From positions 64,319 to 128,318 of the forward strand of contig JACZWU010000004.1 in NCBI GenBank assembly GCA_022571985.1: a DNA stretch of 64,000 nt. Reading direction: 5' to 3'. Shown in pieces: positions 47,675-61,419 of this stretch; positions within the stretch are counted from its first letter, which is position 1, and each line of letters opens with the position of its first letter. This DNA comes from Candidatus Zixiibacteriota bacterium. GTDB lineage: Bacteria > Zixibacteria > MSB-5A5 > GN15 > FEB-12. Below the pieces are notes generated by a model. The model was not told the origin of the DNA, did not search any database, and saw only the letters and a program-made list of their open reading frames with translations. Position numbers and translations under genes: made by a program.

Positions 47675-49252
47675 TTGTCAACAGTTAATAAAAAAGAGAG
47701 TTCTCTGGCCAAAACTGCCGGTTCCGTATCGGGGGCAACAGCTATATCCCGGGTGCTGGGGCTGGTCCGGGAACAGGTAATGGCTTTCTATTTCGGGGCG
47801 GGTATTGCCACAGACGCTTTTGTGGTGGCTTTCAGGATTCCCAACCTGCTCAGAGATATGTTTGCCGAGGGGGCCTTATCTTCGGCTTTTGTGCCTGTTT
47901 TTAAGCAAAAACTAGTGAAAGAGTCGGAAACTGAGGCCAGAAGCCTGGCAAATATTGTGGCAACTTTGATACTGCTTTTGGTTGGGCTAATTGTGCTGCT
48001 GGGGATAGTAGCGGCTCCGGCAATAGTATATATCTCGGCCAACGGATTTACATCGGATCCCTTAAAATTTGATCTTACAGTCAATCTAACCAGAATTATG
48101 ATGGTTTATCTGCTGCTTGTCTCTTTGTCTTCGCTGACGATGGGGATGTTGAACTCCTACGGAAAATTCGCCATTCCGGCCATCTCTCCGGCTCTTTTCA
48201 ATCTTGGTACAGTCCTGACTGTTCTGGTCTTTCACCGGTTTTTTGAGCAGCCTATTTTTGCACTCGCCATAGGTGTGGTTGTCGGAGGTGTGGCCCAGCT
48301 GGCAATTCAACTTCCGGCGCTTTTTAAAACCGGATACCGGTTTTATCCCAGCCTTAACTTTTTGGACGAAGGCATAAAAAGGATATCCAGGCTTTTTGTG
48401 CCCATGGTAATCGGGCTCTCGGCCGGAAGAGTCAATATTTTGGTCAGCACTCTGCTGGCATCGTTTTTAGCTGAAGGGGCCTTGTCTTACCTGAATTACT
48501 CTTTTCGATTAATGCATTTCCCTTTGGGAGTGTTTGCCGTTGCTCTGGGAACAGTTACCCTGCCAAAGGTTTCTGAACTAGTCGCCAAAAAAGATTTTGA
48601 GAACTTAAACAAGACTTTTCAGCAGGCGATCGGACTAAACTTTTTCATCGTGATACCGTCGGCAGTAGTGCTGGCTTTGATTGCGCCGATGATAATCAAA
48701 TTGATTTATCAATGGGGGGCGTTTGACGAGATTGATACTCTTAAAGTATCGCTGGCATTATTGCACTATTCCTACGGTTTGATAGGATTTGCGGTTGTAA
48801 GAGTTGTAGCTCCTTTCTATTACGCTTTTGGTGATTCCCGCCTGCCCATGCGAGTTTCTATTGTAACAGTTGTAGTCAACTTGCTCTTGTATTATCCCCT
48901 GATTCAGGTGCTGGATTTTGCCGGTCTGGCAGCGGCGACATCGCTGGCTGGACTGCTCAACGCAACTTTGTTACTCGTCTTTTTATCAACCAAGCCGATC
49001 AAAATTGACTGGGGAAAAATTCTACTGAATCTTTTCAGAGTGACCCTGGCGGCAATATTGGCCTTTTATCTGGCCAAGATTACGCACTTCAGCTTTTCAA
49101 TCGAATTAGAAGTCTTAAACAGAGCTGCCGAGCTAACTTCAATTCTTTGTATCGGGGGCGTTGCATATTTTGTTTTCTGCCTTATATTTCAGGTCTCAGA
49201 AGCCGTTAAAATCGGCAAGTGGATCCTGAAAATTATTTTCCGTAAGCAGTAG
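47675..49252 (+). CDS. murJ: Lipid II flippase
   Basis: SRVLGLVRE, DAFVVAFRIPNLLRDMFAEGALSSAFVP, RLMHFPLGVF. Confidence 0.96.
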   Translation: MSTVNKKESSLAKTAGSVSGATAISRVLGLVREQVMAFYFGAGIATDAFVVAFRIPNLLRDMFAEGALSSAFVPVFKQKLVKESETEARSLANIVATLILLLVGLIVLLGIVAAPAIVYISANGFTSDPLKFDLTVNLTRIMMVYLLLVSLSSLTMGMLNSYGKFAIPAISPALFNLGTVLTVLVFHRFFEQPIFALAIGVVVGGVAQLAIQLPALFKTGYRFYPSLNFLDEGIKRISRLFVPMVIGLSAGRVNILVSTLLASFLAEGALSYLNYSFRLMHFPLGVFAVALGTVTLPKVSELVAKKDFENLNKTFQQAIGLNFFIVIPSAVVLALIAPMIIKLIYQWGAFDEIDTLKVSLALLHYSYGLIGFAVVRVVAPFYYAFGDSRLPMRVSIVTVVVNLLLYYPLIQVLDFAGLAAATSLAGLLNATLLLVFLSTKPIKIDWGKILLNLFRVTLAAILAFYLAKITHFSFSIELEVLNRAAELTSILCIGGVAYFVFCLIFQVSEAVKIGKWILKIIFRKQ

Positions 49253-51552
49253 TGCTAAAAAAATACCCTGGTCTTTTTTTTCTGATTCCGGTAGTGGCCG
49301 GAATTCTGTTCACAGACTTTGTCCGTCCTGCGGGCTGGCTCTTGCTGCTGCTTTGTCTGATTTCGTTTGTTGGCGGACTGGTTCTGTTTAAAAAAGAATC
49401 AGCACGCTTTTCGATTATCTTATTTGCTCTTTGCCTCTTTTTTTTCAGCGGTTTTCATTACGGTCTTAAGACCTACAATTTTGGTTCAAATCATATTGCC
49501 AGATTTATTTCGGAGAAGCAGACCTATCAAATATATGGAGAAGTAGCTGACTGGCCGGAGCTTAAGCATAACAGGACCGAAATTACAATTGCCATTGACT
49601 CGCTTGGAAACGGTACAATTTTTCCGGTAAAAGGCGGCATCCTCCTGAAACTATCAAACACAACTACCGCATTACAGCGGGGGGATAAAGTAGAGTTCTG
49701 GGGAACTATATATCCTGTGAAATCTCAGCATGGTCCGGGTGGATTTGACTACAGCAGATACTTGAGGCACAAAGGCATCCATGGCATTGTCTATTTGCCG
49801 ACTCTCTTAAACGTTCGAGTGGGTAAGCCGGGAGCAAGAGGTATTATTGCTTATGTTGATTTACTGCGTGAGGAAATTTCAGAAAGCCTGTCACGAAATC
49901 TTTCGAAAGTTGCCGCCTCGCTCTCGGCCGGTTTTTTGATTGGTGAGACCAGAGAAATTCCGCCTGACGTCTACAGCTGGTTCAGAGATTCGGGAACACT
50001 GCATCTTCTGGCTGTTTCAGGTTCGAATGTGGCTCTGGTGATTTTCTTTTTGATAATAGTTCTTCGTCCTTTAGCTCTGCCCAGAAAGAGACGGGCTGCG
50101 GTCTTAATGGTTTGTGTTGTGCTCTTTGCACTGCTGTCTTATGGGGAACCGTCGGTGGTGCGGGCTTCATTGATGGCTATTTTAATTTTACTGGCAAATG
50201 TTTTTGAGCGCCGCTACAACTTAAATCAGATAATTGCTTCTGCCGCCATGATAATACTTCTGGCGGCGCCGACTCAATTGTTCAGCGTTGGCTTTCAACT
50301 TTCATTTGTGACTGCCTGGGGATTGATATTTGTAACACCCAGAGCGGCCAAATTTTTTGAAGCAGTTAATCATAAAGGCTGGTATCGCTGGCTGCTGCTG
50401 CCGTTTATGATTTCGCTGATTGCTCAGCTATTCTCAATGCCTCTGATCGCACTCTATTTCGGAAAAGTGCCGGCAATTTCTGTGATAGCAAATCTCGTAA
50501 TTATTCCGCTCGTTTCTATCGCAGTCGTAGGTGTGCTGCTACTTCTCCTGCTGGATTTAATACTGCCGATCATGGGTCTGTTTTTCGGTTCGCTTCTCGA
50601 TTCTTTTATGCAATTAGTGCTTTACTTTCTAAGTCTGTTTGGAGAAAAGCAAAGCATTATTATCAATACCGGTGATATTTCGGTGCTGGCCGTAGTTTTA
50701 TTCTATGGTCTGTTGGTACTGGCTGTTTTCTCCTTTAACAGCAAATTGCTTCGGCGGGCCACAGTTTTTGCAACTGCAATAGTCCTGAGTATAGCCCTTC
50801 TTAGCAACTTACTTTCTGCTTCGGTCCGCTCTAATGACTTTTGTACAGTCGATATTTTTAACATACCCGGTGGCACCGCTATTTTGATTTATCAGAATCA
50901 GAGCCAGACGCCAGACCTGATAATCAGCGGCCTGACCAGGAAACCGTACCCAATAGATGAACGAATTTTCAGCTCGGCCTTTGATGATTTAGGGGTGGAG
51001 GGACTCGGCCAGGTTTTTGTGATGTCATCGGAGTATGGTGCTATCGATGATATCTATAGACTCTGTCTCAGCTACCGGGCCAAATCTGTCATGGTAGATG
51101 CCAGGTTAGAAAAGAGCTTTTCGGATATAAGACGGACGCTTTTTGTAAATTACCGCACAGTCAAAATTGAGACATTTCCGGCAGAAAATTCTAAGAAATC
51201 CTTCCCGGGCTATTATCCCTCGAAAAATCTGATTGAGCTTGAACTGAATAATTCATCGATATTGATAGCAAATGAGAATTTTCTGTCAGGTGATAACGAA
51301 GTCTTCTTAGCAAAGCCGTCTCTGGTCATTTATTGCGGCAGAAGTAAGATAGCCCGCTCAGAAATTGAAGAGATTATCGAAAGTCAAAGCAACTTAAAGC
51401 AACTGGTCTGTTCAAGAATTGAGCAAAAGGGCGCTGTTTCTTTACCTGCTGAAAAATACAAGAAAATAGTTACGGATATTGGGCAAATCGGAGGCTGTCG
51501 GATCAAGCTTAAGAACCGAACCGACAGTACTTTCCAAGTCTCTCAGTTTTGA
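49252..51552 (+). CDS. comEC: ComEC/Rec2 family DNA uptake channel
   Basis: N-terminal TMs, OB-like domain with PGGFDYSRYL, core GTLHLLAVSGSNV, PSVVRASLMA, VGFQLSF. Confidence 0.9.
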   Translation: MLKKYPGLFFLIPVVAGILFTDFVRPAGWLLLLLCLISFVGGLVLFKKESARFSIILFALCLFFFSGFHYGLKTYNFGSNHIARFISEKQTYQIYGEVADWPELKHNRTEITIAIDSLGNGTIFPVKGGILLKLSNTTTALQRGDKVEFWGTIYPVKSQHGPGGFDYSRYLRHKGIHGIVYLPTLLNVRVGKPGARGIIAYVDLLREEISESLSRNLSKVAASLSAGFLIGETREIPPDVYSWFRDSGTLHLLAVSGSNVALVIFFLIIVLRPLALPRKRRAAVLMVCVVLFALLSYGEPSVVRASLMAILILLANVFERRYNLNQIIASAAMIILLAAPTQLFSVGFQLSFVTAWGLIFVTPRAAKFFEAVNHKGWYRWLLLPFMISLIAQLFSMPLIALYFGKVPAISVIANLVIIPLVSIAVVGVLLLLLLDLILPIMGLFFGSLLDSFMQLVLYFLSLFGEKQSIIINTGDISVLAVVLFYGLLVLAVFSFNSKLLRRATVFATAIVLSIALLSNLLSASVRSNDFCTVDIFNIPGGTAILIYQNQSQTPDLIISGLTRKPYPIDERIFSSAFDDLGVEGLGQVFVMSSEYGAIDDIYRLCLSYRAKSVMVDARLEKSFSDIRRTLFVNYRTVKIETFPAENSKKSFPGYYPSKNLIELELNNSSILIANENFLSGDNEVFLAKPSLVIYCGRSKIARSEIEEIIESQSNLKQLVCSRIEQKGAVSLPAEKYKKIVTDIGQIGGCRIKLKNRTDSTFQVSQF

Positions 51553-51655: not shown

Positions 51656-52861
51656 ATGAGTTTGTCAGGGAATTTAAAAACAGTCTCATTCTCGGACATC
51701 CTGCAGTTATTGTCAACGGGCAAGAAGACAGGAGTTCTGGAAGTAAATACCAGCGCCAGGCAAAAGGAAGTAGCCTTTAAGGGTGGCAACATAATTTATG
51801 CCTCATCACTGAATACTACCGAAGATTTGCTGGGAAATATGCTGCTGCGTAAAGGGAAACTTTCCAAAGATCAGCTGGAGCGCGCTATAACGCTGCACAA
51901 GCAGACCGGCAGACAGCTGGGTACCACACTTGTGGATATGAATCTTTTTGAAAAAGATGAAATCGCTGAGTGTCTGAAATTTCAAATTGAAGAAATAGTC
52001 TATAATTTGTTTTCCTGGCAGGAAGGAAACTTCGTTTTTCACGAAGGCACCAGTCCCAAAAACGCACCTTTCTTAGTAGACCTTACCACCATGAGTATCG
52101 TCATGGAAGGTACCCGCCGTATTGATGAATGGCTGGAAATTCAGAAAGTGCTGCCGCCGGACGAAATGATGCTGTCTGTAGCTGCTTCACCAAAAACAAA
52201 TAGTGATGAAGTCAGACTGACTATGGAAGAATTTCGGGTGCTGTCCATGATAAACGGCGAAAGAACTTTGCCGGAAATGATACAATGTTCACCTTTTGGG
52301 GAGTTTGTAACCTGTCGTGCAGTTTACAAGTTGATATTAGGGAATTTGATAGAAGTCACCGGTAAACGTGAAGAAAGTTCTGAAGAAAAACAGGATGAAG
52401 AAGAAGCGGTTCTGTCTCTAATCTTTTATCTGTTCAGTAACGCTTTTTACAGGATTCGTACGACAGTGGAAGATTTGCTGGGAGAAAACAACACCAGGTT
52501 TTCAAGCTTTGCTTCTCAGTATCGCTCAGGAATTTTGAGTTATTTCCCGGGAGTAGATCCCGGCTCGGAATTGATGCCCTCGCAGGAAAAATTTCTTAGC
52601 GCCGTCAGATCGATTCCTGCACATATCCGGGTGCATGTATTGCTTGGCAGTTTAACCAGCATGCTTACCGAGCAGCTGGAATATGTATTCATGATTTTGG
52701 GCGAAGGTCCTTTCCGGAGCACGCTCAACGGAGTAAAAAGAGAAATATCCGAGCCGCTGGCAAAGAAGCGAGAGTTAGTCAAAAAATATGGAATAGAAAA
52801 CGATTACTATAAGTCCTTAAAAAGGGCCGAAAGAGTAGTTCATATGGTACGAGGTGATTAA
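51656..52861 (+). CDS. DUF4388 (PATAN-like) domain protein with MshEN-like motif
   Basis: SLSGNLKTVSFSDILQLLSTGKKTGVL...IIYASS...LLGNMLL; MEGTRRIDEW. Confidence 0.85.
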   Translation: MSLSGNLKTVSFSDILQLLSTGKKTGVLEVNTSARQKEVAFKGGNIIYASSLNTTEDLLGNMLLRKGKLSKDQLERAITLHKQTGRQLGTTLVDMNLFEKDEIAECLKFQIEEIVYNLFSWQEGNFVFHEGTSPKNAPFLVDLTTMSIVMEGTRRIDEWLEIQKVLPPDEMMLSVAASPKTNSDEVRLTMEEFRVLSMINGERTLPEMIQCSPFGEFVTCRAVYKLILGNLIEVTGKREESSEEKQDEEEAVLSLIFYLFSNAFYRIRTTVEDLLGENNTRFSSFASQYRSGILSYFPGVDPGSELMPSQEKFLSAVRSIPAHIRVHVLLGSLTSMLTEQLEYVFMILGEGPFRSTLNGVKREISEPLAKKRELVKKYGIENDYYKSLKRAERVVHMVRGD

Positions 52862-53225
52862 GATGAAAAAGAGTTTATTTATTGCAATTTTAATTAGTGC
52901 AGCGATGGGCAGTGATGTCCAGGCCGCCAATCTGGCTGTTATAGCCAGTCCGCCGACGATGTTTAATCTGTTCGTATTGATAGTTGCCGGAGCCTGTTTG
53001 TTTGGTTCTTTTCAGGTAATGGGTCAGGTCAAAGGCGGCTATCTGAGCAGGAGCTGGCAGATGTTTTTCCTTGGTTTCGTGCTTCTGGCCATAAGCCAGC
53101 TGGCAAGTATCGCTTCGGCAATGGAGTTTTTCAGTCTGCCGGAGCTGTTTACTCCACTAATGCTGCTATTGATGTCGGGACTTTTTGCGTTTGGAGTTTT
53201 TAGCGCTAGAAAAACGCTAAGCTGA
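52854..53225 (+). CDS. Small hypothetical membrane protein (signal peptide plus about 3 TM)
   Basis: Hydrophobic segments; overlaps the stop of the upstream gene; the start may be ATG 52863. Confidence 0.7.
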   Translation: MIKMKKSLFIAILISAAMGSDVQAANLAVIASPPTMFNLFVLIVAGACLFGSFQVMGQVKGGYLSRSWQMFFLGFVLLAISQLASIASAMEFFSLPELFTPLMLLLMSGLFAFGVFSARKTLS

Positions 53226-53339
53226 GAATATTTTTGTTAGCTGGTTTAAATTATTTTTGGAAAAAAAGTAGGCGCAAGGCAGAATTTTTAATTGCGCAAG
53301 AACTTATGGCAAAACAAGTTACAATGAGCGTTTGTTTTT

Positions 53340-54224
53340 ATGGCGACTGTATCAGAATTAGATGATAGAATAGAGAAGTGTCAGAGAATTTTGGACTCTG
53401 ACCCTAACTCACAGATTTTTGCTGCCTTGGCTGAAGCATATCGCAAAAAGGGAGACCTGGATCTGGCTTTTAAAGTGTGCAAAAACGGATTGAAAGTGCA
53501 TGACAACTACGGCTCTGCTCATGTGGTTATGTCTAAAATAAATCTCGACCGTGGTCAATATGACTGGGCGGAGATTGAAGCCAAACGTGCAGCCGATCTT
53601 GACGGTCGTACCCGTTCAGTTGAACTGTTGCTGTCAGAAATCTACATCTATAAAGGCGAATTTCCGCAGGCCATAAAGCTCTTGAAGGAACTCAGCAACC
53701 GTGACCCTGAAAATCCTCAGATTCAAAAACTGTTGGAGATTGCGCAGAAAATTCCGGAAGAACAAAATGCCTATTTGGACGAGACAATTATTACCGGAGG
53801 TTCATCTGGCAGCAGTCCAGTTTTACCATCTGAAGTTGATGAAACAGAAACTGAAACGAATAAGCCGTTAGAACTGCATGACATTCTTACCGAAGCCCTG
53901 ACAATAAAAGGACTAAAGGGCGCTATGCTTGTCAGCCAGGACGGTCTGGTAGCTGATTATGAATGGAAAAGTTCCCTGGAAGTAAATGACTGCGGGGCTG
54001 TTTTATCGGAAATATGGAAAATGCTTAGCAGCGAACTTGTAAATAACTCTTTTGGCAACGTGCAAAACGTACTTATTGAAGCAGCAGAATCAACTTTTTA
54101 TATAAATCAGAACTCAAAAGGCATTTTCATTTTTGTGGCAGGTAAAAAAGCTAATTTGGGCAACGTTCGCATGAGAATTGACGGACTGATGTCTAATTAT
54201 GCCAAAACAGCAGGTGCTATATGA
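53340..54224 (+). CDS. TPR plus roadblock/LC7 domain protein
   Basis: TPR-like N-terminus (FAALAEAYRKKGDLDLAFKVCKNGL); C-terminal KGAMLVSQDGLV...ANLGNVRMRI. Confidence 0.8.
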   Translation: MATVSELDDRIEKCQRILDSDPNSQIFAALAEAYRKKGDLDLAFKVCKNGLKVHDNYGSAHVVMSKINLDRGQYDWAEIEAKRAADLDGRTRSVELLLSEIYIYKGEFPQAIKLLKELSNRDPENPQIQKLLEIAQKIPEEQNAYLDETIITGGSSGSSPVLPSEVDETETETNKPLELHDILTEALTIKGLKGAMLVSQDGLVADYEWKSSLEVNDCGAVLSEIWKMLSSELVNNSFGNVQNVLIEAAESTFYINQNSKGIFIFVAGKKANLGNVRMRIDGLMSNYAKTAGAI

Positions 54225-55204
54225 ACTTTTCAGGTGAAGCTACAAAACGGCTATTGTTGTATTCGTTAATTCTATTAGTCGTGCCGTTAATATTGTTTCC
54301 GGAAAGACTCGGAACATATCTTCAGGACTATTCTTCGACTAATATCGTCCTGGAACTTCTTTTCTATCTGCTGCTGACTTTCGTGTTATACAGACAGGGA
54401 AACGCCATGCAAATGGTAGCAATCGTCTTTATCGGACTGGGCTACAGATTGCTTATAAGTTCGGTATTTTCAGTGCTGATTTCTGCCTTTTATGATATCA
54501 GCAGCAGCGTAGCCTTTTCTCTGGGGATGTACGGATACTTACCGAGTTTGCTTTTCCAGGTTTTTGCCACCCAGTTTATAATCAAAAGCACTATGGATGA
54601 AATATTTTTCAGTCGATCCCGTATTCGTCGCCCACAGCAGTCAGATACTACCGCCTTTGATTCAGTTGAGACCGGCACCTCGACCTTTGTAGTTACTAAA
54701 GAAAAAAACGCTACCAGACCCGATTCTCCTCCACCCAGGCCGGCTCAGAACCAACCAGGTTTTGAAGACCGATCTGCAGGAGAGTCAACTGTTGTTGGCG
54801 GAGAAGCTCAGGGCTTCGATAAGGCCACCAGATATATTGGTGAACATGGTTCTGTCAAGCTGGCTGCAGTAGTTGACCATGAAGGTCTGCTGTTATCAAA
54901 CTTTACCCGCGGCGGTATAATTGCAGAAGATGTAGCTCCCTTTGCTTTGCTTATAAAAGCAAACGGAGCCGGGAGCATGAACTTTCTCAACTACGGATGT
55001 CCGGAAAGAGTAGAATTTCAGCTAAGTAATGACAGGGTGGTCCTTTGCTATGAAGAGACATATTGTCTTATGGTGATAGCAGAAAGACACAGTGATGATT
55101 TATTAAATATTCGCATAAATCAAGCGATGGAAATGGTCAAGAAATATATGTCCGAGAGGTATGGCAAAATGCTGCACCCGGCAATGGAGAAATCATATGC
55201 ATGA
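54221..55204 (+). CDS. Multi-TM membrane protein with C-terminal roadblock/LC7-like domain
   Basis: About 4 N-terminal hydrophobic helices, P/Q/S-rich linker, then KLAAVVDHEGLLLS...LMVIAE...LLNIRINQA. Confidence 0.7.
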   Translation: MNFSGEATKRLLLYSLILLVVPLILFPERLGTYLQDYSSTNIVLELLFYLLLTFVLYRQGNAMQMVAIVFIGLGYRLLISSVFSVLISAFYDISSSVAFSLGMYGYLPSLLFQVFATQFIIKSTMDEIFFSRSRIRRPQQSDTTAFDSVETGTSTFVVTKEKNATRPDSPPPRPAQNQPGFEDRSAGESTVVGGEAQGFDKATRYIGEHGSVKLAAVVDHEGLLLSNFTRGGIIAEDVAPFALLIKANGAGSMNFLNYGCPERVEFQLSNDRVVLCYEETYCLMVIAERHSDDLLNIRINQAMEMVKKYMSERYGKMLHPAMEKSYA

Positions 55205-55538
55205 AATACTAAGTGAACTGAACAAAACAACCGGCATTACCGGCTCAATGGTGGTCGGCAATGATGGTATTGTTATTGCGGCCAATCTGCAGGAAAATGT
55301 GGAAGACGACACTATCGGAGCCCTGGCGGCATCGATAACCGCCAACATCCATAAATCGCTGGAGCGACTCCAGAGCAGCCCTTTGACACATGTTACCATA
55401 GAAGCTGATGACGCCAAGCTGTTTTTCAGCGACGCCGGACTTGGCATTCTGGTCGTAACTGCAGAGAAAGAAGTGAATATTGGTCTAATTCGACTCGAAA
55501 TCAAGCACGCCATATCACGATTGAAAACGTCAAGTTAG
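55197..55538 (+). CDS. Stand-alone roadblock/LC7 protein (MglB/MglC-like)
   Basis: GITGSMVVGNDGIVIA...LVVTAEKEVNIGLIRLEI; start placed at ATG 55197. Confidence 0.88.
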   Translation: MHEILSELNKTTGITGSMVVGNDGIVIAANLQENVEDDTIGALAASITANIHKSLERLQSSPLTHVTIEADDAKLFFSDAGLGILVVTAEKEVNIGLIRLEIKHAISRLKTSS

Positions 55539-55564
55539 AAACTAAGAATAGTAGGAAGAAGTAA

Positions 55565-56683
55565 ATGGTATCAATAAACTACTCAGCGCGAGAGGTCTGC
55601 TGCAAAATAGTCTATTATGGTCCGGGCTTATCGGGCAAGACTACCAACTTGCAATATGTCCACACCAAAGTGCCCAGCACGACACGCGGAGAACTTATAT
55701 CTCTGGCGACTGAAGCAGACCGGACTCTCTATTTTGATTTCCTGCCAATTAATATTGGTACAATCAATGGATTTCAGGCCAAGTTTCAGCTCTATACTGT
55801 CCCCGGGCAGGTCTACTACAATGCTACCCGTAAATTAGTTTTGCGGGGTGTAGACGGCGTTGTATTTGTAGCAGACAGTCAGCCTGACAAAATGGACGAA
55901 AATATTGAAGCTCTGGCAAACTTGATAGATAACCTCAAAGAATATGGGTACGACGTTAATGAGCTGCCACTGGTGATTCAATATAACAAACGTGACCTTC
56001 CCAATATAATGACAACCGAAGAGATGGATCAAAAGCTTAATACTTATAATTTCCCTACTTTTGAGGCTTCGGCTACTGTGGGAACAGGGGTTTTTGATAC
56101 GCTCAAACTGATTATCAAGCTTGTCCTGGAAAAAGCTAAGAATTCTCAGGGATCAAGCAAATCTTCGAAGCCAGCCGAAGAGGCACCTGCGTCACCTGCG
56201 TCACCAGAGCCAGCCGTACCTCAGGCACCTGCGGCACCAGAGCCGGCTGCACAAGTTGCAGTTCCACCTGCCGCGGAGCCAGGCCCGGACGAGCCTTTGG
56301 CCGATCCTGCGGTTCAACCCTTAGGTAACGATCCCTATGCAGCGCCGCCTGCAGCTTCTCAGGTTCAGGGACAGCCAACAGCCGCAGTTTCAACAGCTGA
56401 TATACCGGTAACATCGGCGACTGACGACAGAATTCCCGCGTATCGTCCTTATCCTGGGGCAAAGCAGGCAGATCCTTCAGCAGGAGGCGATGCTGAAATG
56501 GATGAGAGGCCGTATCCCGGTATGAATCAAAGTGAGAAAACTCTCACAAATAATGACTCAGCCACAGACGAATCGGCCGCCATGGAAAATTCTGGTTCTA
56601 TTACTCCCAGGATGGCGCCTTCACTTAAGCGAAGAGAGCAAAAGAAGCGCAGCTTTTTCAAGAAATTGTTTGGAATAAAATAA
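55565..56683 (+). CDS. mglA: MglA-family small GTPase with long C-terminal extension
   Basis: INYSAREVCCKIVYYGPGLSGKTTN, DRTLYFDFLP, TVPGQ, NKRD, EASA; then about 180 aa P/A-rich tail. Confidence 0.92.
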   Translation: MVSINYSAREVCCKIVYYGPGLSGKTTNLQYVHTKVPSTTRGELISLATEADRTLYFDFLPINIGTINGFQAKFQLYTVPGQVYYNATRKLVLRGVDGVVFVADSQPDKMDENIEALANLIDNLKEYGYDVNELPLVIQYNKRDLPNIMTTEEMDQKLNTYNFPTFEASATVGTGVFDTLKLIIKLVLEKAKNSQGSSKSSKPAEEAPASPASPEPAVPQAPAAPEPAAQVAVPPAAEPGPDEPLADPAVQPLGNDPYAAPPAASQVQGQPTAAVSTADIPVTSATDDRIPAYRPYPGAKQADPSAGGDAEMDERPYPGMNQSEKTLTNNDSATDESAAMENSGSITPRMAPSLKRREQKKRSFFKKLFGIK

Positions 56684-56699
56684 TATATAGGAGGCAGGA

Positions 56700-57191
56700 A
56701 TGTCTGATAGTAACCTGATAATTTACGAAGAAGAAATAAATCAAATTGAAGCTCTGATATCCAAGATGCTTAAAGGAGCAGAGGCAAAGTGCGCCCTGCT
56801 GGTCGATAAAGACGGTCACCTTATTACCCGTCTGGGGTTTACGCACTCTCTTGATACTACCGCACTGGCAGCGCTTCTGGCCGGTTCGTTTGCCTCGACA
56901 AAAGAGATAGCCAGACTGGTCGGTGAACCGGAGTTTTCGGTTCTGTTTCATCAAGGCAAGAAAGACCATATCCACATGTCTATAGTCGGAGATCGTTCTA
57001 TTTTAGTAGTTATTTTTGACGACCGTACAACAATTGGAATGGTCCGCCTTTATGCCAAAGAAACCGCCACTGGCTTGAGTAAGATTTTTGTGGAGATAAC
57101 AGAGAAGTCCGCCTCCGGTCGTAAGAGCGCCGTTGAAGGTGATTTTGTGGAGCGTGCTCAGGAAAAGCTGGACGACATTTTTCAGGACTAA
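56700..57191 (+). CDS. mglB: MglB-type roadblock GTPase-activating protein
   Basis: LIIYEEEINQI...LVDKDGHLI...DTTALAAL...EPEFSVLFHQG...IFDDRTTIGMVRL...DDIF, closely matching Myxococcus MglB as I recall it. Confidence 0.88.
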   Translation: MSDSNLIIYEEEINQIEALISKMLKGAEAKCALLVDKDGHLITRLGFTHSLDTTALAALLAGSFASTKEIARLVGEPEFSVLFHQGKKDHIHMSIVGDRSILVVIFDDRTTIGMVRLYAKETATGLSKIFVEITEKSASGRKSAVEGDFVERAQEKLDDIFQD

Positions 57192-57266
57192 GCACTAACG
57201 CCTAGACAAATAGCACGTAAACTTTTCAACCTGTAATTGGATAGGAGTTAACCACAGGCAATAGGT

Positions 57267-58967
57267 ATGGCTACAGAACTCAGCAACATACTCGTTAAGC
57301 ACGGCAAGATTTCTCAGGAGCAGGCCGACAAAGCGCTAAAGCTGGTCAAAAGCGATAGCGAGAAATTTGAAGTGGCCCTGGTAAAAATTGGCGCTGTTGA
57401 GTCAGAATATGACATAGCGCAGTTTATAGGAAAGCACCTGAAAATTGGTGCCCTTAAGCTTAGTGACATTGAGCTAAATCCTGATATTGTCAAGATGATT
57501 CCGCTTGATATCGCCCGCAAGTTCAAAGTCATAGCAATCTCAAAAATTGGCAAGAACCTTCTGGTCGCAATAGGTGACCCCAATAATGTTTACGTACTGG
57601 ATGCAATAAAATTTATAACAGGCTGCACTGTTCAGCCTGTCATTTCACCTGAAAACGCGATCGAAAAAGCTATCGAATTACAGTATGGAGATACGGGAGC
57701 GCTTTCTGACATTGTGGCCAGCCTTGACGCCGATGATAGTTTGGAAGTAGTCTCGAGTGAGTCGGCTCCTGATGAATCTGACCTGCTTTCTGCAATTCAG
57801 GACAAGCCGCTGGTAAAGCTGGTTGATTCAATAATTGCCGATGCTATTCGAATAGGAGCCTCTGATATTCACCTTGAAACTTATGAAAAGCGAATTCGTG
57901 TGCGCTACCGCGTAGACGGTGATTTACGAGAACTACCGCCATTGCCTTTTAAGTACAGGGCAGCGATTATTTCACGTATTAAAATTATGGCTGAGCTTGA
58001 TATATCCGAACGTCGTCTGCCTCAGGACGGACGTGTAAAAGTCAAAATTTCCGGCAGAACAGTAGACCTGCGGGTGTCGGTGCTGCCTACGATTTTCGGC
58101 GAGAAGGTAGTTATGCGAATCCTGGATCCGATGGCTCTAATGGTAGATATGACCAAGCTCGGATTTAGAACCGAAGATCTCGACAATTTCAGAAGAGCAA
58201 TTCACCTGCCCTATGGCATAATTTTGGTTACCGGACCGACTGGTTCCGGTAAAACTACGACTCTGTATTCGGCCTTAAAATCAATCAATACAGTAGACGT
58301 TAATATCATGACAGCCGAAGACCCGGTTGAGTTTAACTTTGATGGCATCAATCAGGTCGCTGTTAAAGCCGACATAGGTCTGACATTTGCAAATACCCTC
58401 AGGTCGTTTTTGCGACAGGATCCGGATATCATAATGCTCGGAGAAATTCGTGACGGCGAGACAGCAGAAATAGCCATTCGGGCAGCTCTTACCGGTCACC
58501 TTGTTTTTTCCACCTTGCATACTAATGATGCGCCGTCATCTATCAACCGTTTAATGGACATGGATGTGCCTTTTTATCTGGTAGCTTCGGCCACCAAATT
58601 AATACTGGCACAAAGGATGGTCCGAAAAGTCTGCCAAAATTGTAAGATGGAGATTAATCTGACCAAAGATCAAGTAGAAAGTCTCGGCGTACCGTCAGTC
58701 TGCCTGACCAATTTAAGAGCTTTCAAAGGAAAAGGCTGCGATGAGTGCAGTGATACCGGGCAGTCGGGCAGAACAGCTATATTTGAAATCATGCCCATAT
58801 CCCCGGCCATTGAAAAGCTGATTCTTGATAGAGGCACCGATGCTGATATTCAAAAGACTGCCCTGGATGAAGGCATGTACAGCCTGCGCATGTCTGCTAT
58901 TGAGAAGATGAAGCTGGGAATGGTCAGCATCGATGAGGTCTTTGCCACTACGGCGGCTGTAACATAA
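57267..58967 (+). CDS. pilB: Type IV pilus assembly ATPase
   Basis: ASDIHLE, RRLPQDGR, GPTGSGKTTTLY, LRQDPDIIMLGEIRD, STLHTND, CxxC...CxxC. Confidence 0.92.
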   Translation: MATELSNILVKHGKISQEQADKALKLVKSDSEKFEVALVKIGAVESEYDIAQFIGKHLKIGALKLSDIELNPDIVKMIPLDIARKFKVIAISKIGKNLLVAIGDPNNVYVLDAIKFITGCTVQPVISPENAIEKAIELQYGDTGALSDIVASLDADDSLEVVSSESAPDESDLLSAIQDKPLVKLVDSIIADAIRIGASDIHLETYEKRIRVRYRVDGDLRELPPLPFKYRAAIISRIKIMAELDISERRLPQDGRVKVKISGRTVDLRVSVLPTIFGEKVVMRILDPMALMVDMTKLGFRTEDLDNFRRAIHLPYGIILVTGPTGSGKTTTLYSALKSINTVDVNIMTAEDPVEFNFDGINQVAVKADIGLTFANTLRSFLRQDPDIIMLGEIRDGETAEIAIRAALTGHLVFSTLHTNDAPSSINRLMDMDVPFYLVASATKLILAQRMVRKVCQNCKMEINLTKDQVESLGVPSVCLTNLRAFKGKGCDECSDTGQSGRTAIFEIMPISPAIEKLILDRGTDADIQKTALDEGMYSLRMSAIEKMKLGMVSIDEVFATTAAVT

Positions 58968-59097: not shown

Positions 59098-60195
59098 ATG
59101 GGGAAAACCATGGTAGGTCTGCGTGAACTGCTTGAAGAAATGTTCAAGATGGAAGCTTCTGATTTGCATATTACTGTCGGGGCTCCTCCGGTCGTCCGAG
59201 TTGATGGCAAGCTTCAGCCTCTGAATTATGATCCTTTGACCAGTGAAGATACCAAGAAGATAGCTTATACGATGCTCAACGAAAAACAGAAGCTCAAATT
59301 TGAGCAAAACTCCGAACTGGACTTTTCATTCGGAATTGAGCAGATGAGCAGGTTTCGGGCTAATATGTTTATGCAGCGAGGCAATGTCGCGGTGGTTCTG
59401 CGGCAGATTCCATATGAAGTAAAAACGTTTGAAGAGCTCGGATTGCCAAAAGTAATCGCGGAATTTGCAAATCTTCCCCGCGGCTTGGTACTCATTACCG
59501 GACCCACCGGTTCAGGAAAATCAACATCTTTGGCTTCTGTCATTGACAAAATTAACAGAGAAAGAGCCGTTCATATAATTACTATAGAAGACCCGATTGA
59601 ATACCTGCATCGCCATAAAAAATCTCTGGTCAACCAGCGGGAAGTATATTCTGACACAGCCTCATTCGCCACGGCCTTGAAATATGCTTTGCGCGAAGAC
59701 CCGGATGTAGTTCTGGTGGGTGAAATGAGAGACCTGGAAACAATCGAGTCGGCCTTATCAATTTCAGAGACGGGACACCTTGCCTTTGCTACCTTGCATA
59801 CAAACTCCGCTGCAGAATCGGTAAACAGAATAGTAGATTCTTTTCCCGCAAATCAGCAGGAGCAGGTACGGGTTACTCTGTCGTTCACTCTTCAGGCGGT
59901 AGTATCACAGACACTGATTCCCAAAATTGGCGGCGGACGCGTATTGGCAATGGAAATATTGGTAGTAACGCCTGCGATCCGGGCGCTGATACGTGATGAT
60001 AAGGTTCATCAGCTATATTCTATGATACAGGCCGGACAGAAATACGGCATGAAGACGATGAATCAGTCACTGGCAGAATTATATGAGGCTCATAAAATTA
60101 CCATAAACGATGCAATGGCTCATAGCAGTTCAACTCAGGAGTTGACGGAAATGCTCCAGAAAAGTAAAGTTCAAAGATCTCCTGCATTCAGTTAG
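59098..60195 (+). CDS. pilT: Type IV pilus retraction ATPase
   Basis: ASDLHIT, GPTGSGKST, TIEDPIE, QREV, LREDPD, AIRALIRD. Confidence 0.95.
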   Translation: MGKTMVGLRELLEEMFKMEASDLHITVGAPPVVRVDGKLQPLNYDPLTSEDTKKIAYTMLNEKQKLKFEQNSELDFSFGIEQMSRFRANMFMQRGNVAVVLRQIPYEVKTFEELGLPKVIAEFANLPRGLVLITGPTGSGKSTSLASVIDKINRERAVHIITIEDPIEYLHRHKKSLVNQREVYSDTASFATALKYALREDPDVVLVGEMRDLETIESALSISETGHLAFATLHTNSAAESVNRIVDSFPANQQEQVRVTLSFTLQAVVSQTLIPKIGGGRVLAMEILVVTPAIRALIRDDKVHQLYSMIQAGQKYGMKTMNQSLAELYEAHKITINDAMAHSSSTQELTEMLQKSKVQRSPAFS

Positions 60196-60222: not shown

Positions 60223-61419
60223 ATGGCAGTTTTTGAATACAAAGGAAAGACGTTAGCCGGAGCAGCAGTTCAGGGCTCGCTTAAGGCAAAAAGCAAAGAG
60301 GACCTTGAGCGCGTCTTAAGGCAGAATCGTATACTGGTTACCTCAATAACCAGAAAAGCTCCGGACATAAATATAAAATTCGGAACCGGCATAAGTCGCT
60401 TAGATATATCCCGGTTTACCCGCCAGTTTGCTACTATGATTGGTGCCGGCCTGCCCATGGTCCAGTGTCTTGAAATCATGGCGTCTCAGACTGATAGTAA
60501 AGAACTTGCTAAAGTTATCACACAGGTAAAAGAAGGAGTTCAGGGAGGTGCTACTCTGGCCGATGCCCTGGCGCGCCATCCCAAAGTTTTTGACCAGCTT
60601 TATTCGAATATGGTACAGGCAGGAGAGATCGGTGGTGCACTTGATGCCATTCTTATGCGTTTGGCGGCATATCGCGAAAAGTCTGACCAGCTGATTCGTA
60701 AAGTAAAAGGCGCCATGGTCTATCCGTCCGTTATCGTAGTAGTTGCCGCTGGTGTAACATTCGGTATGTTGACGTTTATCGTTCCTGTTTTTGCTAAGAT
60801 GTTTGGAGGATTAAACGCAGAACTGCCTATGCCTACTCAGTATGTTCTGGCAATTTCGCATTTTTTGCAAGACAACATTCTTTACCTGATAGTCGGTTCG
60901 ATAGGATCTGTTGTCGGTCTTTTGTGGTGGAAGAAAACTCCTACTGGTGCGCTTCTTTTTGATAAGTTCATGCTTATGACGCCAATATTTGGAAACCTGA
61001 TCAGAAAATCTGCGGTGGCAAGGTTTACTCGTACATTGGGAACCCTGCTGTCGTCCGGTGTGTCAATTATTGAAGCAATGGAGATTACTGCTAAAACCGC
61101 AGGTAACGTAGTTATCGCAAATGCGATTAACAAGGCCGTTCTGTCAATCGCCGAAGGTGATACGATTACCGGCCCGCTGAAAGAATCGGGTGTTTTCCCT
61201 CCAATGGTAACTCAGATGATTGCTGTAGGCGAAAAGACAGGTGGCTTAGATGACATGCTCAGCAAAATTGCAGATTTCTATGACGAAGAAGTAGATGAAG
61301 CTGTAACCGCCCTGACCTCTGTAATTGAGCCAATCATTATTGTATTTATGGGTATTGTCATTGGTGGTATTTTGATAGCCATGTATTTGCCAATGTTCGA
61401 CATAATTGGAAAAATCTAA
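60223..61419 (+). CDS. pilC: Type IV pilus platform protein (T2SSF family)
   Basis: FTRQFATMIGAGLP, GEIGGALD, KVKGAMVYP, GEKTGGLDDML, AMYLPMF. Confidence 0.95.
   Translation: MAVFEYKGKTLAGAAVQGSLKAKSKEDLERVLRQNRILVTSITRKAPDINIKFGTGISRLDISRFTRQFATMIGAGLPMVQCLEIMASQTDSKELAKVITQVKEGVQGGATLADALARHPKVFDQLYSNMVQAGEIGGALDAILMRLAAYREKSDQLIRKVKGAMVYPSVIVVVAAGVTFGMLTFIVPVFAKMFGGLNAELPMPTQYVLAISHFLQDNILYLIVGSIGSVVGLLWWKKTPTGALLFDKFMLMTPIFGNLIRKSAVARFTRTLGTLLSSGVSIIEAMEITAKTAGNVVIANAINKAVLSIAEGDTITGPLKESGVFPPMVTQMIAVGEKTGGLDDMLSKIADFYDEEVDEAVTALTSVIEPIIIVFMGIVIGGILIAMYLPMFDIIGKI

Follow-up and report, generated by a model that had tools for sequence, protein, structure and literature searches.

The MglA/MglB pair is the model of Ras-like polarity switching in bacteria, and mechanistic work on it comes nearly all from Myxococcus, where the scaffold consists of RomR and a single extra roadblock protein, MglC, which is characterized by binding MglB and RomR via its FDI surface and by not binding MglA. 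In M. xanthus, roadblock-roadblock stacking regulated by the state of the GTPase is a published mechanism (PMC10329633), and SgmX, a protein with tetratricopeptide repeats (TPR), is the effector through which MglA stimulates type IV pili (T4P) (PMC7519303). That some group-1 mglA genes are coupled to two genes of the mglB family, and that PATAN neighbors occasionally occur, was noted in 2014 (PMC4316618). Here we describe an mglA locus in a 64-kb window of a Candidatus Zixiibacteriota genome (the whole stretch of DNA analyzed, 64,000 nt; GenBank assembly GCA_022571985.1, contig JACZWU010000004.1, positions 64,319 to 128,318 of the forward strand), in which mglA and mglB are preceded by three genes that we call P3, P4, and P5. 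The five genes form a conserved, tightly packed unit encoding four roadblock (Rbl) domains, and this operon is real and conserved across the phylum. We found no description in the literature of a four-roadblock operon or of fusions of a roadblock to four transmembrane (TM) helices or to a TPR domain, and no publication combining Zixibacteria with MglA. The parts of the unit, in window coordinates and with domain limits taken in part from AlphaFold2 (AF2) models, are the following:

53340–54224, + strand: P3, a TPR domain, a disordered linker, and a roadblock domain
53349–53774: TPR domain of P3, about residues 4–151 from AF2 helices (the coordinates given cover residues 4–145)
P3 residues 148–175: disordered linker (AF2)
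53874–54209: roadblock domain of P3, residues 179–290 (AF2)
54221–55204, + strand: P4, four TM helices, a disordered linker, and a cytoplasmic roadblock domain
54233–54607: predicted TM region of P4, residues 5–129, with helices at about 5–25, 40–56, 62–91, and 95–129
54614–54805: disordered linker of P4, 64 aa, residues 132–195 (AF2, predicted local distance difference test [pLDDT] <50)
54812–55198: roadblock domain of P4, residues 198–326 (AF2)
55197–55538, + strand: P5, a free roadblock protein of 113 aa (Pfam, profile, conservation)
55565–56683, + strand: MglA, 372 aa (Pfam, alignment)
55565–56149: G domain of MglA, residues 1–195
56150–56680: whole tail of MglA, of which residues 196–347 are Pro/Ala-rich and variable
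56606–56635: conserved motif P.MAPSL+RR in the MglA tail
56642–56680: terminal amphipathic, polybasic segment of MglA, KKRSFFKKLFGIK
56700–57191, + strand: MglB, 163 aa, a roadblock core and a C-terminal helix region

The original prediction had placed four roadblock domains around this mglA, and Pfam, cross-matches between family profiles, AF2 models, and Foldseek all bear it out; family hidden Markov models (HMMs) find exactly four, with no fifth roadblock open reading frame (ORF) in the 64 kb. Against the Pfam model Robl_LC7 (PF03259, cut-off 23 bits), P5 scores 50.7 bits and MglB 50.6 bits, both above the cut-off; the assignment of these two is from sequence alone, and that of P3 and P4 draws also on AF2 models. 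P3 by itself reaches 22.3 bits, slightly under the cut-off. Many of its 699 homologs carry PF03259, and its family profile aligns with the P5 family over 109 columns (hhalign probability 98.1%, E 1.3e-13). The C-terminal domain of P3 is modeled at pLDDT 85–90 with the topology alpha-beta-beta-alpha-beta-beta-beta-alpha, and Foldseek matches it to LAMTOR2 (TM-score 0.89) and to an Asgard roadblock (0.82), and also to MglB. The fold of P4 is seen only through family profiles and structure prediction, because single-sequence methods found no match: P4 alone gave no hit in Pfam or in a search of the PDB, and BLASTP of its C-terminal domain matched neither P5 nor P3. At the level of the family, Robl_LC7 is matched by 13 of 52 P4 homologs, and the P4 profile finds the dynein roadblock in the PDB (E 0.008) and P5 (HMM E 2.3e-8; hhalign E 1.9e-5). 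The AF2 model of P4 residues 198–326 has a pLDDT of ~90 and roadblock topology, with Foldseek matches to LAMTOR2, MglB, Asgard, and Streptomyces roadblocks at TM-scores of 0.75–0.83. The domains fused to P3 and P4 are thus roadblock folds by both topology and structural matches (LAMTOR2, MglB, and Asgard roadblocks at 0.75–0.89, probability 1.00), and PF03259 membership is backed by the sequence match as well as by the alpha-beta-beta-alpha-beta-beta-beta(-alpha) fold. Both free roadblocks predicted to flank mglA are likewise real; the upstream one, P5, most likely starts at 55197 (113 aa) and not at the longest-ORF start of 55161.

The four domains are not equally related. P3-Rbl and P5 share a beta3 motif, V[TL]IE[AT], and on the profile comparison are clear paralogs; P4-Rbl is more distant from this pair, and MglB is the most distinct of the four. 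Among solved sequences, the P5 profile scores best with Asgard roadblocks (7yh1, E 4.4e-12; 7f8m, 2.2e-8; 9jue, 2.6e-8), followed by CvnB5 (5e-4), MglB (0.06), and LAMTOR2 (0.25). P5 also has an invariant alpha2 helix, whose pattern is similar to that of alpha2 in MglB.

The anticipated membrane anchoring of one roadblock, behind about four TM helices and a flexible linker, also held up, the AF2 model of P4 showing four TM helices and a disordered linker. The P4 roadblock is cytoplasmic, with an N-in/C-in topology, because of the distribution of charge across the loops: the N terminus, loop 2, and the segment after TM4, all inside, hold 8 Lys/Arg, and the outside loops 1 and 3 hold 1. Within the TM helices, E45 (54353–54355, TM2), R76 (54446–54448, TM3), P27, and P108 are invariant, and E45 and R76, with the two prolines, may form an intramembrane ion pair or a functional site instead of a passive anchor. 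Beyond the last helix, P4 orthologs of both forms, with TM helices or soluble, carry a conserved terminal tail, E..Y[VA] (55175–55201 in the window); together with the "MAPS" motif of MglA, this tail is a candidate short peptide ligand of the highly conserved TPR domain of P3.

MglA appears to be of the group-1-like, Myxococcus type, coupled to mglB. Its residues 3–197 align without gaps with M. xanthus MglA (5ymx, E 6e-81), the intrinsic Arg53 and Gln82 are kept, and the DRT and PGQ motifs are conserved. After residue 195 follow 177 aa of low-complexity tail, rich in Ala, Pro, and Ser (A 18%, P 16%), which match no Pfam domain. Among 55 orthologs the tail is 116–219 aa long and poorly conserved, and in 55/55 it ends in P.MAPSL+RR...KKRGFFKRLFGIK. 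The membrane-targeting sequence of Escherichia coli MinD is KGFLKRLFGG (PMC5471200), which the MglA terminus KKRGFFKRLFGIK matches at 8/10 positions. MglA is therefore strongly predicted, from this likeness, to carry a flexible tether ending in a MinD-like amphipathic membrane-binding helix. The setting differs from that of MinD, since the sequence stands here on a Ras-like GTPase after a disordered linker of 116–219 aa and not directly on a ParA/MinD ATPase; we found no description of a MinD-like tail on MglA in the literature. Small GTPases have been claimed to have gained C-terminal extensions for membrane anchoring only during eukaryogenesis (PMC10933270); the tail of MglA would be a convergent case in bacteria and is thus relevant to that claim.

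MglB residues 4–162 align with residues 3–158 of M. xanthus MglB (6izw_B, E 2.5e-37), end to end and including the C-terminal region. Its score against the Thermus-based NCBIfam equivalog is 89.7 bits, below the 200-bit cut-off. This full-length similarity, with the C-terminal helix region included, and the adjacency to mglA point to membership in the MglB family, the established GTPase-activating proteins (GAPs) of MglA. In alpha2 of MglB (about residues 55–75), the equivalent of M. xanthus A64 is kept and that of G68 is Glu; in the proteins studied, the small residues at these two positions face MglA.

Scanned with the P4 profile, species-representative genomes yielded 63 loci, nearly all labeled Zixibacteria, with a few labeled Ignavibacteriales, Calditrichota, GN15, or other taxa. 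Named homologs are from Zixibacteria metagenome-assembled genomes, and the window's own sequence is present in marine-sediment metagenomes. Every sufficiently long locus has the gene order ComEC, PATAN, small TM protein, P3, P4, P5, MglA (311–414 aa), MglB, and in nearly all loci PilB/PilT follow MglB. In the window the unit lies in a same-strand run that extends from the PATAN gene through the small membrane protein, P3, P4, P5, the long MglA, MglB, PilB, and PilT to a 398-aa ORF. The flanking features are:

49252–51552: ComEC, directly upstream of the PATAN gene (DUF4131 and Competence domains in relatives)
51656–52861, + strand: PATAN (DUF4388/PatA_N) protein, 401 aa, a likely input (Pfam DUF4388, 115 bits)
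52854–53225, + strand: small membrane protein, 123 aa, with a hydrophobic N terminus and further hydrophobic segments (hydropathy; conserved position)
53226–53339, + strand: intergenic region preceding P3 (alignment of the relatives' intergenic regions)
57267–58967, + strand: PilB (Pfam T2SSE/MshEN)
59098–60195, + strand: PilT (Pfam T2SSE)
60223–61419, + strand: 398-aa ORF, a candidate PilC-type gene by synteny with the relative L002, where Pfam T2SSF is annotated (position only)

Within the unit, the genes overlap or nearly touch. In the window the P3 stop and the P4 start overlap by 4 nt, P4 and P5 by 8 nt, and mglB starts 16 nt downstream of mglA. The P4/P5 overlap is 8, 17, or 20 nt in 56/56 loci, and the median gaps among loci are 11 nt for P3-P4, 27 nt for P5-mglA, and 17 nt for mglA-mglB. 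Mean pairwise identities, calculated across 31 loci, are highest for the MglB core (0.85), the MglA G domain (0.83), PilT (0.82), and PilB (0.78), followed by P5 (0.75), PATAN and the P3 TPR domain (both 0.67), P4-Rbl (0.50), P3-Rbl and the P4 TM region (both 0.39), and the linkers (0.10–0.13; P4 linker, 0.13). The value for P5 is near those of MglA, MglB, and PilB, and its constraint is therefore comparable to that of the core enzymes.

The P4 profile retrieved only 193 of 1.84 billion representative proteins at E <= 0.001, most of which share the full-length architecture. A divergent member of the family stands in a metagenome locus reading TPR-Rbl, TM-Rbl, Rbl, MglA (343 aa), MglB, PilB. 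Weaker matches, 130–150 aa long, are complete roadblocks in soluble form, and in sister lineages such a protein, with 133–150 aa and neither TM helices nor linker, occupies the position of P4 (L068, 6001–6453; also L069; L070, 2093–2494), as in the order ComEC, PATAN, small TM, TPR-Rbl, Rbl150, Rbl112, MglA (407 aa), MglB, PilB, PilT, PilC. In L068 the gene following the soluble roadblock overlaps it by 8 nt, like P5 with P4. In a second sister lineage with soluble P4, the MglA tail still ends in a polybasic and hydrophobic stretch (KGKKRKFTFFGLFKESKE). Since these lineages keep four roadblocks with a soluble P4 ortholog, the conserved core is the four roadblock domains plus the tailed MglA, and the 4-TM anchor was gained or lost in particular clades.

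We also considered how the unit is expressed. In a generic scan for promoters and terminators the window did not exceed shuffled sequences, and a promoter-like site emerged only once the intergenic regions of the relatives were aligned. Before P3, TTGAC[AT] is found in 48/54 loci and TTGAC[AT]-N16-18-TAnnnT in 38/54; the site (TTGACA-N17-TATAAT-like, resembling a sigma-70 -35/-10 pair) lies ~65 nt before the P3 start codon in relatives. The gap between the small TM gene and P3 is ~107 nt across loci. Given the tight or overlapping spacing and this promoter-like site, most relatives seem to transcribe P3-P4-P5-mglA-mglB as one unit. That these genes function as a unit with MglA, as the original prediction had it, is supported by the phylum-wide synteny, the overlaps and tight spacing, and the unit's own promoter in most relatives. 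RNAalifold detected no structure in the 5' untranslated region preceding P3, and Rfam had no match in the window. A marine-sediment run labeled "metatranscriptomic WGA" contains a ~90% identical relative, with contigs across P4-P5-mglA and mglA-mglB-pilB (window 54425–57887). These contigs are compatible with co-transcription and were not counted as expression, because DNA carry-over is possible; the longest record is 85 kb.

Upstream of this unit, the PATAN gene keeps its place in every locus that extends far enough to include it. Its product contains a tandem MshEN-type cyclic di-GMP (c-di-GMP)-binding motif at residues 59–110 (51830–51985; NCBIfam NF053729, 51 bits, cut-off 38), and its C-terminal ~240 aa match no family. 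The gene of the small membrane protein follows it at a median gap of 3 nt and is co-conserved with it in position, and the protein matches no Pfam or NCBIfam family. PATAN regulators bind the T4P motor in Synechocystis (bioRxiv 10.1101/2021.06.11.447907).

We suggest, at a little less than an even chance of being right, that the operon is an elaborated form, found throughout Zixibacteria, of the MglA/MglB polarity switch and controls the adjacent type IV pilus motor via a roadblock scaffold. MglB would be the GAP of MglA, as in Myxococcus and Thermus, and the C-terminal helix of MglA would keep this protein at the inner membrane. P4, P5, and P3-Rbl would touch each other and MglB via roadblock-roadblock interfaces, as heterodimers or stacked dimers (compare RomR/MglC/MglB), and the resulting membrane-proximal scaffold would set where MglB meets MglA-GTP, beside the pilus machine. 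In Zixibacteria proper P4 would provide a fixed membrane attachment, and P5, produced in step with P4, would be a highly constrained hub. The TPR domain of P3 could be a coupling arm from the scaffold to a partner, for example the pilus motor or a conserved short peptide, and the PATAN protein could feed c-di-GMP status into the module. Roadblock domains dimerize via beta3/alpha2, as homodimers or heterodimers. For heteromeric pairing, P3-Rbl:P5 is the most likely choice, because the two are paralogs and share the beta3 motif; P4-Rbl:P5 is the alternative, because their genes are translationally coupled.

Several observations weigh against this scaffold. The prokaryotic roadblocks whose solved structures are discussed in the papers cited here (MglB, MglC, and those of Asgard archaea) are homodimers (PMC7949163, PMC10933270). 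Mirror-tree partial correlations of distance matrices, which are weak and were calculated over the 31 loci without a significance test, show no special coupling between roadblocks (Rbl-Rbl r 0.12–0.32) and higher values for P3 with the MglA G domain (r 0.55–0.66). The soluble P4 of the sister lineages indicates that the four-roadblock design can do without a fixed membrane anchor. In the complete Zixibacteria genome CP070824.1 (L001, 10414–11168), mglB is followed by rubrerythrin and a peptidase M29, with no pilB, pilT, or pilC there. In the window and its closest relatives (L003–L005) the sequence before P3 has diverged and holds no recognizable -35/-10 hexamers. Finally, orthology of P5 to MglC was rejected by sequence (P5 profile against M. 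xanthus MglC, 7ct3: E 1, 12.8 bits), a non-match that leaves room for adaptor function, M. xanthus MglC itself being very divergent; P5 may have an adaptor role similar to that of MglC despite there being no detectable orthology.

The homodimeric state of known prokaryotic roadblocks would fit an arrangement in which P3, P4, and P5 are separate homodimers, each binding MglA (or MglB) directly as alternative docking platforms, with no joint complex. P3 could then be a TPR effector of MglA-GTP, P4 a membrane receptor or a regulator resembling a GDP-dissociation inhibitor or guanine nucleotide exchange factor, and P5 a second GAP or an anti-GAP. Roadblock dimers do serve as generic GTPase platforms (PMC3747258, PMC13408092), the strongest co-variation of the P3 domains is that with the G domain of MglA instead of with other roadblock domains, and the invariant alpha2 of P5 is MglB-like. 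However, the universal P4-P5 overlap and the near-equimolar design of the operon fit a complex better, Myxococcus provides a precedent for roadblocks that stack on one another, and P3-Rbl and P5 are paralogs, which often keep mutual binding. We regard separate regulators as unlikely. A stronger form of the scaffold, which we judge rather unlikely, would be a Ragulator-like bacterial device, in which the paralogous roadblocks (P3-Rbl, P4-Rbl, P5, MglB) would be obligate heteromers in a layered inner-membrane platform, fixed by an integral-membrane roadblock subunit, with an MglA tethered through a hypervariable-type linker and an amphipathic helix, and a TPR arm to the T4P motor. If true, no earlier prokaryotic case would exist of a GTPase platform that resides in the membrane and is built of several roadblocks in obligate heterodimers; it would be an independent bacterial invention and a tractable model for the evolution of platforms by duplication.

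The invariant residues in the TM helices of P4 suggest more than a passive anchor. The 4-TM domain, perhaps with the small membrane protein, could sense a membrane or periplasmic cue and gate MglA/MglB via its linker and roadblock, with the other roadblocks as accessories. Such a sensor-transducer would be loosely conservon-like: conservons combine a membrane sensor kinase, the CvnB roadblock, and an MglA-family GTPase (PMC4316618), and CvnB5 is among the matches of the P5 profile. Yet the TM domain is among the least conserved parts and is absent from sister lineages that retain everything else, Pfam and NCBIfam reveal no kinase and no CvnC-like gene among the operon proteins, and the 64-aa linker is a poor signal conduit because it is disordered and not conserved. 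We therefore hold this explanation to be very improbable. The presence of ComEC directly upstream in every locus long enough, with PilB/PilT downstream, raises instead the question of output: the same module could serve competence pili and DNA uptake in place of twitching motility or cell polarity. Against this, MglA in all studied systems governs polarity and motility or T4P placement, and the adjacency of comEC may merely reflect a conserved chromosomal neighborhood, murJ preceding ComEC in both relatives with gene tables (L001, L002); a competence output thus seems quite improbable.

Taken as an elaborated polarity switch, the operon represents a different, phylum-wide solution, with three extra roadblock domains, two new fusions, and a GTPase with its own membrane-targeting-like tail. 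It offers a five-gene system for asking how roadblock paralogs diversify into hetero-complexes, what membrane tethering adds to a GTPase/GAP cycle, and how such a switch is wired to a pilus motor, and nature already provides versions that have the TM anchor and versions that lack it for comparison.

Among known systems, the actinobacterial conservon (CvnA-D) likewise combines, within a single operon, a membrane protein with a roadblock protein and a GTPase of the MglA family (PMC4316618). The locus differs from it in that its MglA is of group 1, not group 2, and its membrane part is fused to a roadblock; no operon protein matches a histidine kinase or CvnC (DUF742), and because there is no kinase and no CvnC the operon is not a conservon. 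Asgard roadblocks are the closest solved sequences to P5 and the top fold matches of P3 and P4. They are free-standing homodimers of unknown function that do not lie in an mglA operon, and the Asgard proteins studied in the same paper showed no membrane targeting as GFP fusions in HeLa cells (PMC10933270).

The comparison with Ragulator, already published for MglB/MglC (Carreira et al. 2023, PMC10329633; Dinet et al. 2026, PMC13408092), was drawn for this locus by the original prediction, which saw a Ragulator-like layout in which heterodimers could build a membrane-tethered platform that separates GAP from nucleotide-exchange-factor or scaffold roles. As an analogy this is reasonable, and a Ragulator-like assembly is plausible; literal membership of Ragulator fails. 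Both Ragulator-Rag (LAMTOR1-5, RagA/B-RagC/D) and the operon have several roadblock-fold subunits at a membrane serving small GTPases, and the roadblock models of P3 and P4 superpose on LAMTOR2 at TM-scores of 0.77–0.89. However, the anchor of Ragulator is the lipidated, non-roadblock wrap LAMTOR1, whereas that of the operon is an integral 4-TM domain fused to the P4 roadblock, and Pfam and NCBIfam scans found no LAMTOR1-like gene in the operon. Ragulator has two roadblock heterodimers, LAMTOR2/3 and LAMTOR4/5. Rag GTPases carry their own C-terminal roadblock and heterodimerize, whereas a single MglA without a roadblock domain is encoded here, and all four operon roadblocks keep the C-terminal helix that LAMTOR4/5 lack. 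At the level of sequence no relationship was detected, the P5 profile reaching only E 0.25 with LAMTOR2. On these four grounds (the missing LAMTOR1-type wrap, a GTPase without its own roadblock, the presence of only one GTPase, and the lack of sequence relationship) the operon is not a member of Ragulator; the homodimeric state of the prokaryotic roadblocks in the cited structural papers and the sister lineages without a TM anchor are further points against a literal Ragulator layout.

The operon works most like the Myxococcus polarity module (MglA, MglB, MglC, RomR/RomX, RomY), and it contains true members of the MglA and MglB families. In both systems MglA is of the group-1 type and supplies an intrinsic Arg finger and Gln, MglB is encoded next to it and has a helix region at its C terminus, and one or more additional roadblock paralogs work with them; both are also linked to T4P and have a TPR partner, which in Myxococcus is SgmX. 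The operon contains no gene for RomR, RomX, or RomY, the search not having extended to other parts of the genome. M. xanthus has one extra roadblock and the Zixibacteria operon three, all encoded with mglA, one fused to four TM helices and one to a TPR domain; and whereas the 195-aa MglA of M. xanthus has no long tail, that of Zixibacteria has one, with a membrane-targeting-like helix.

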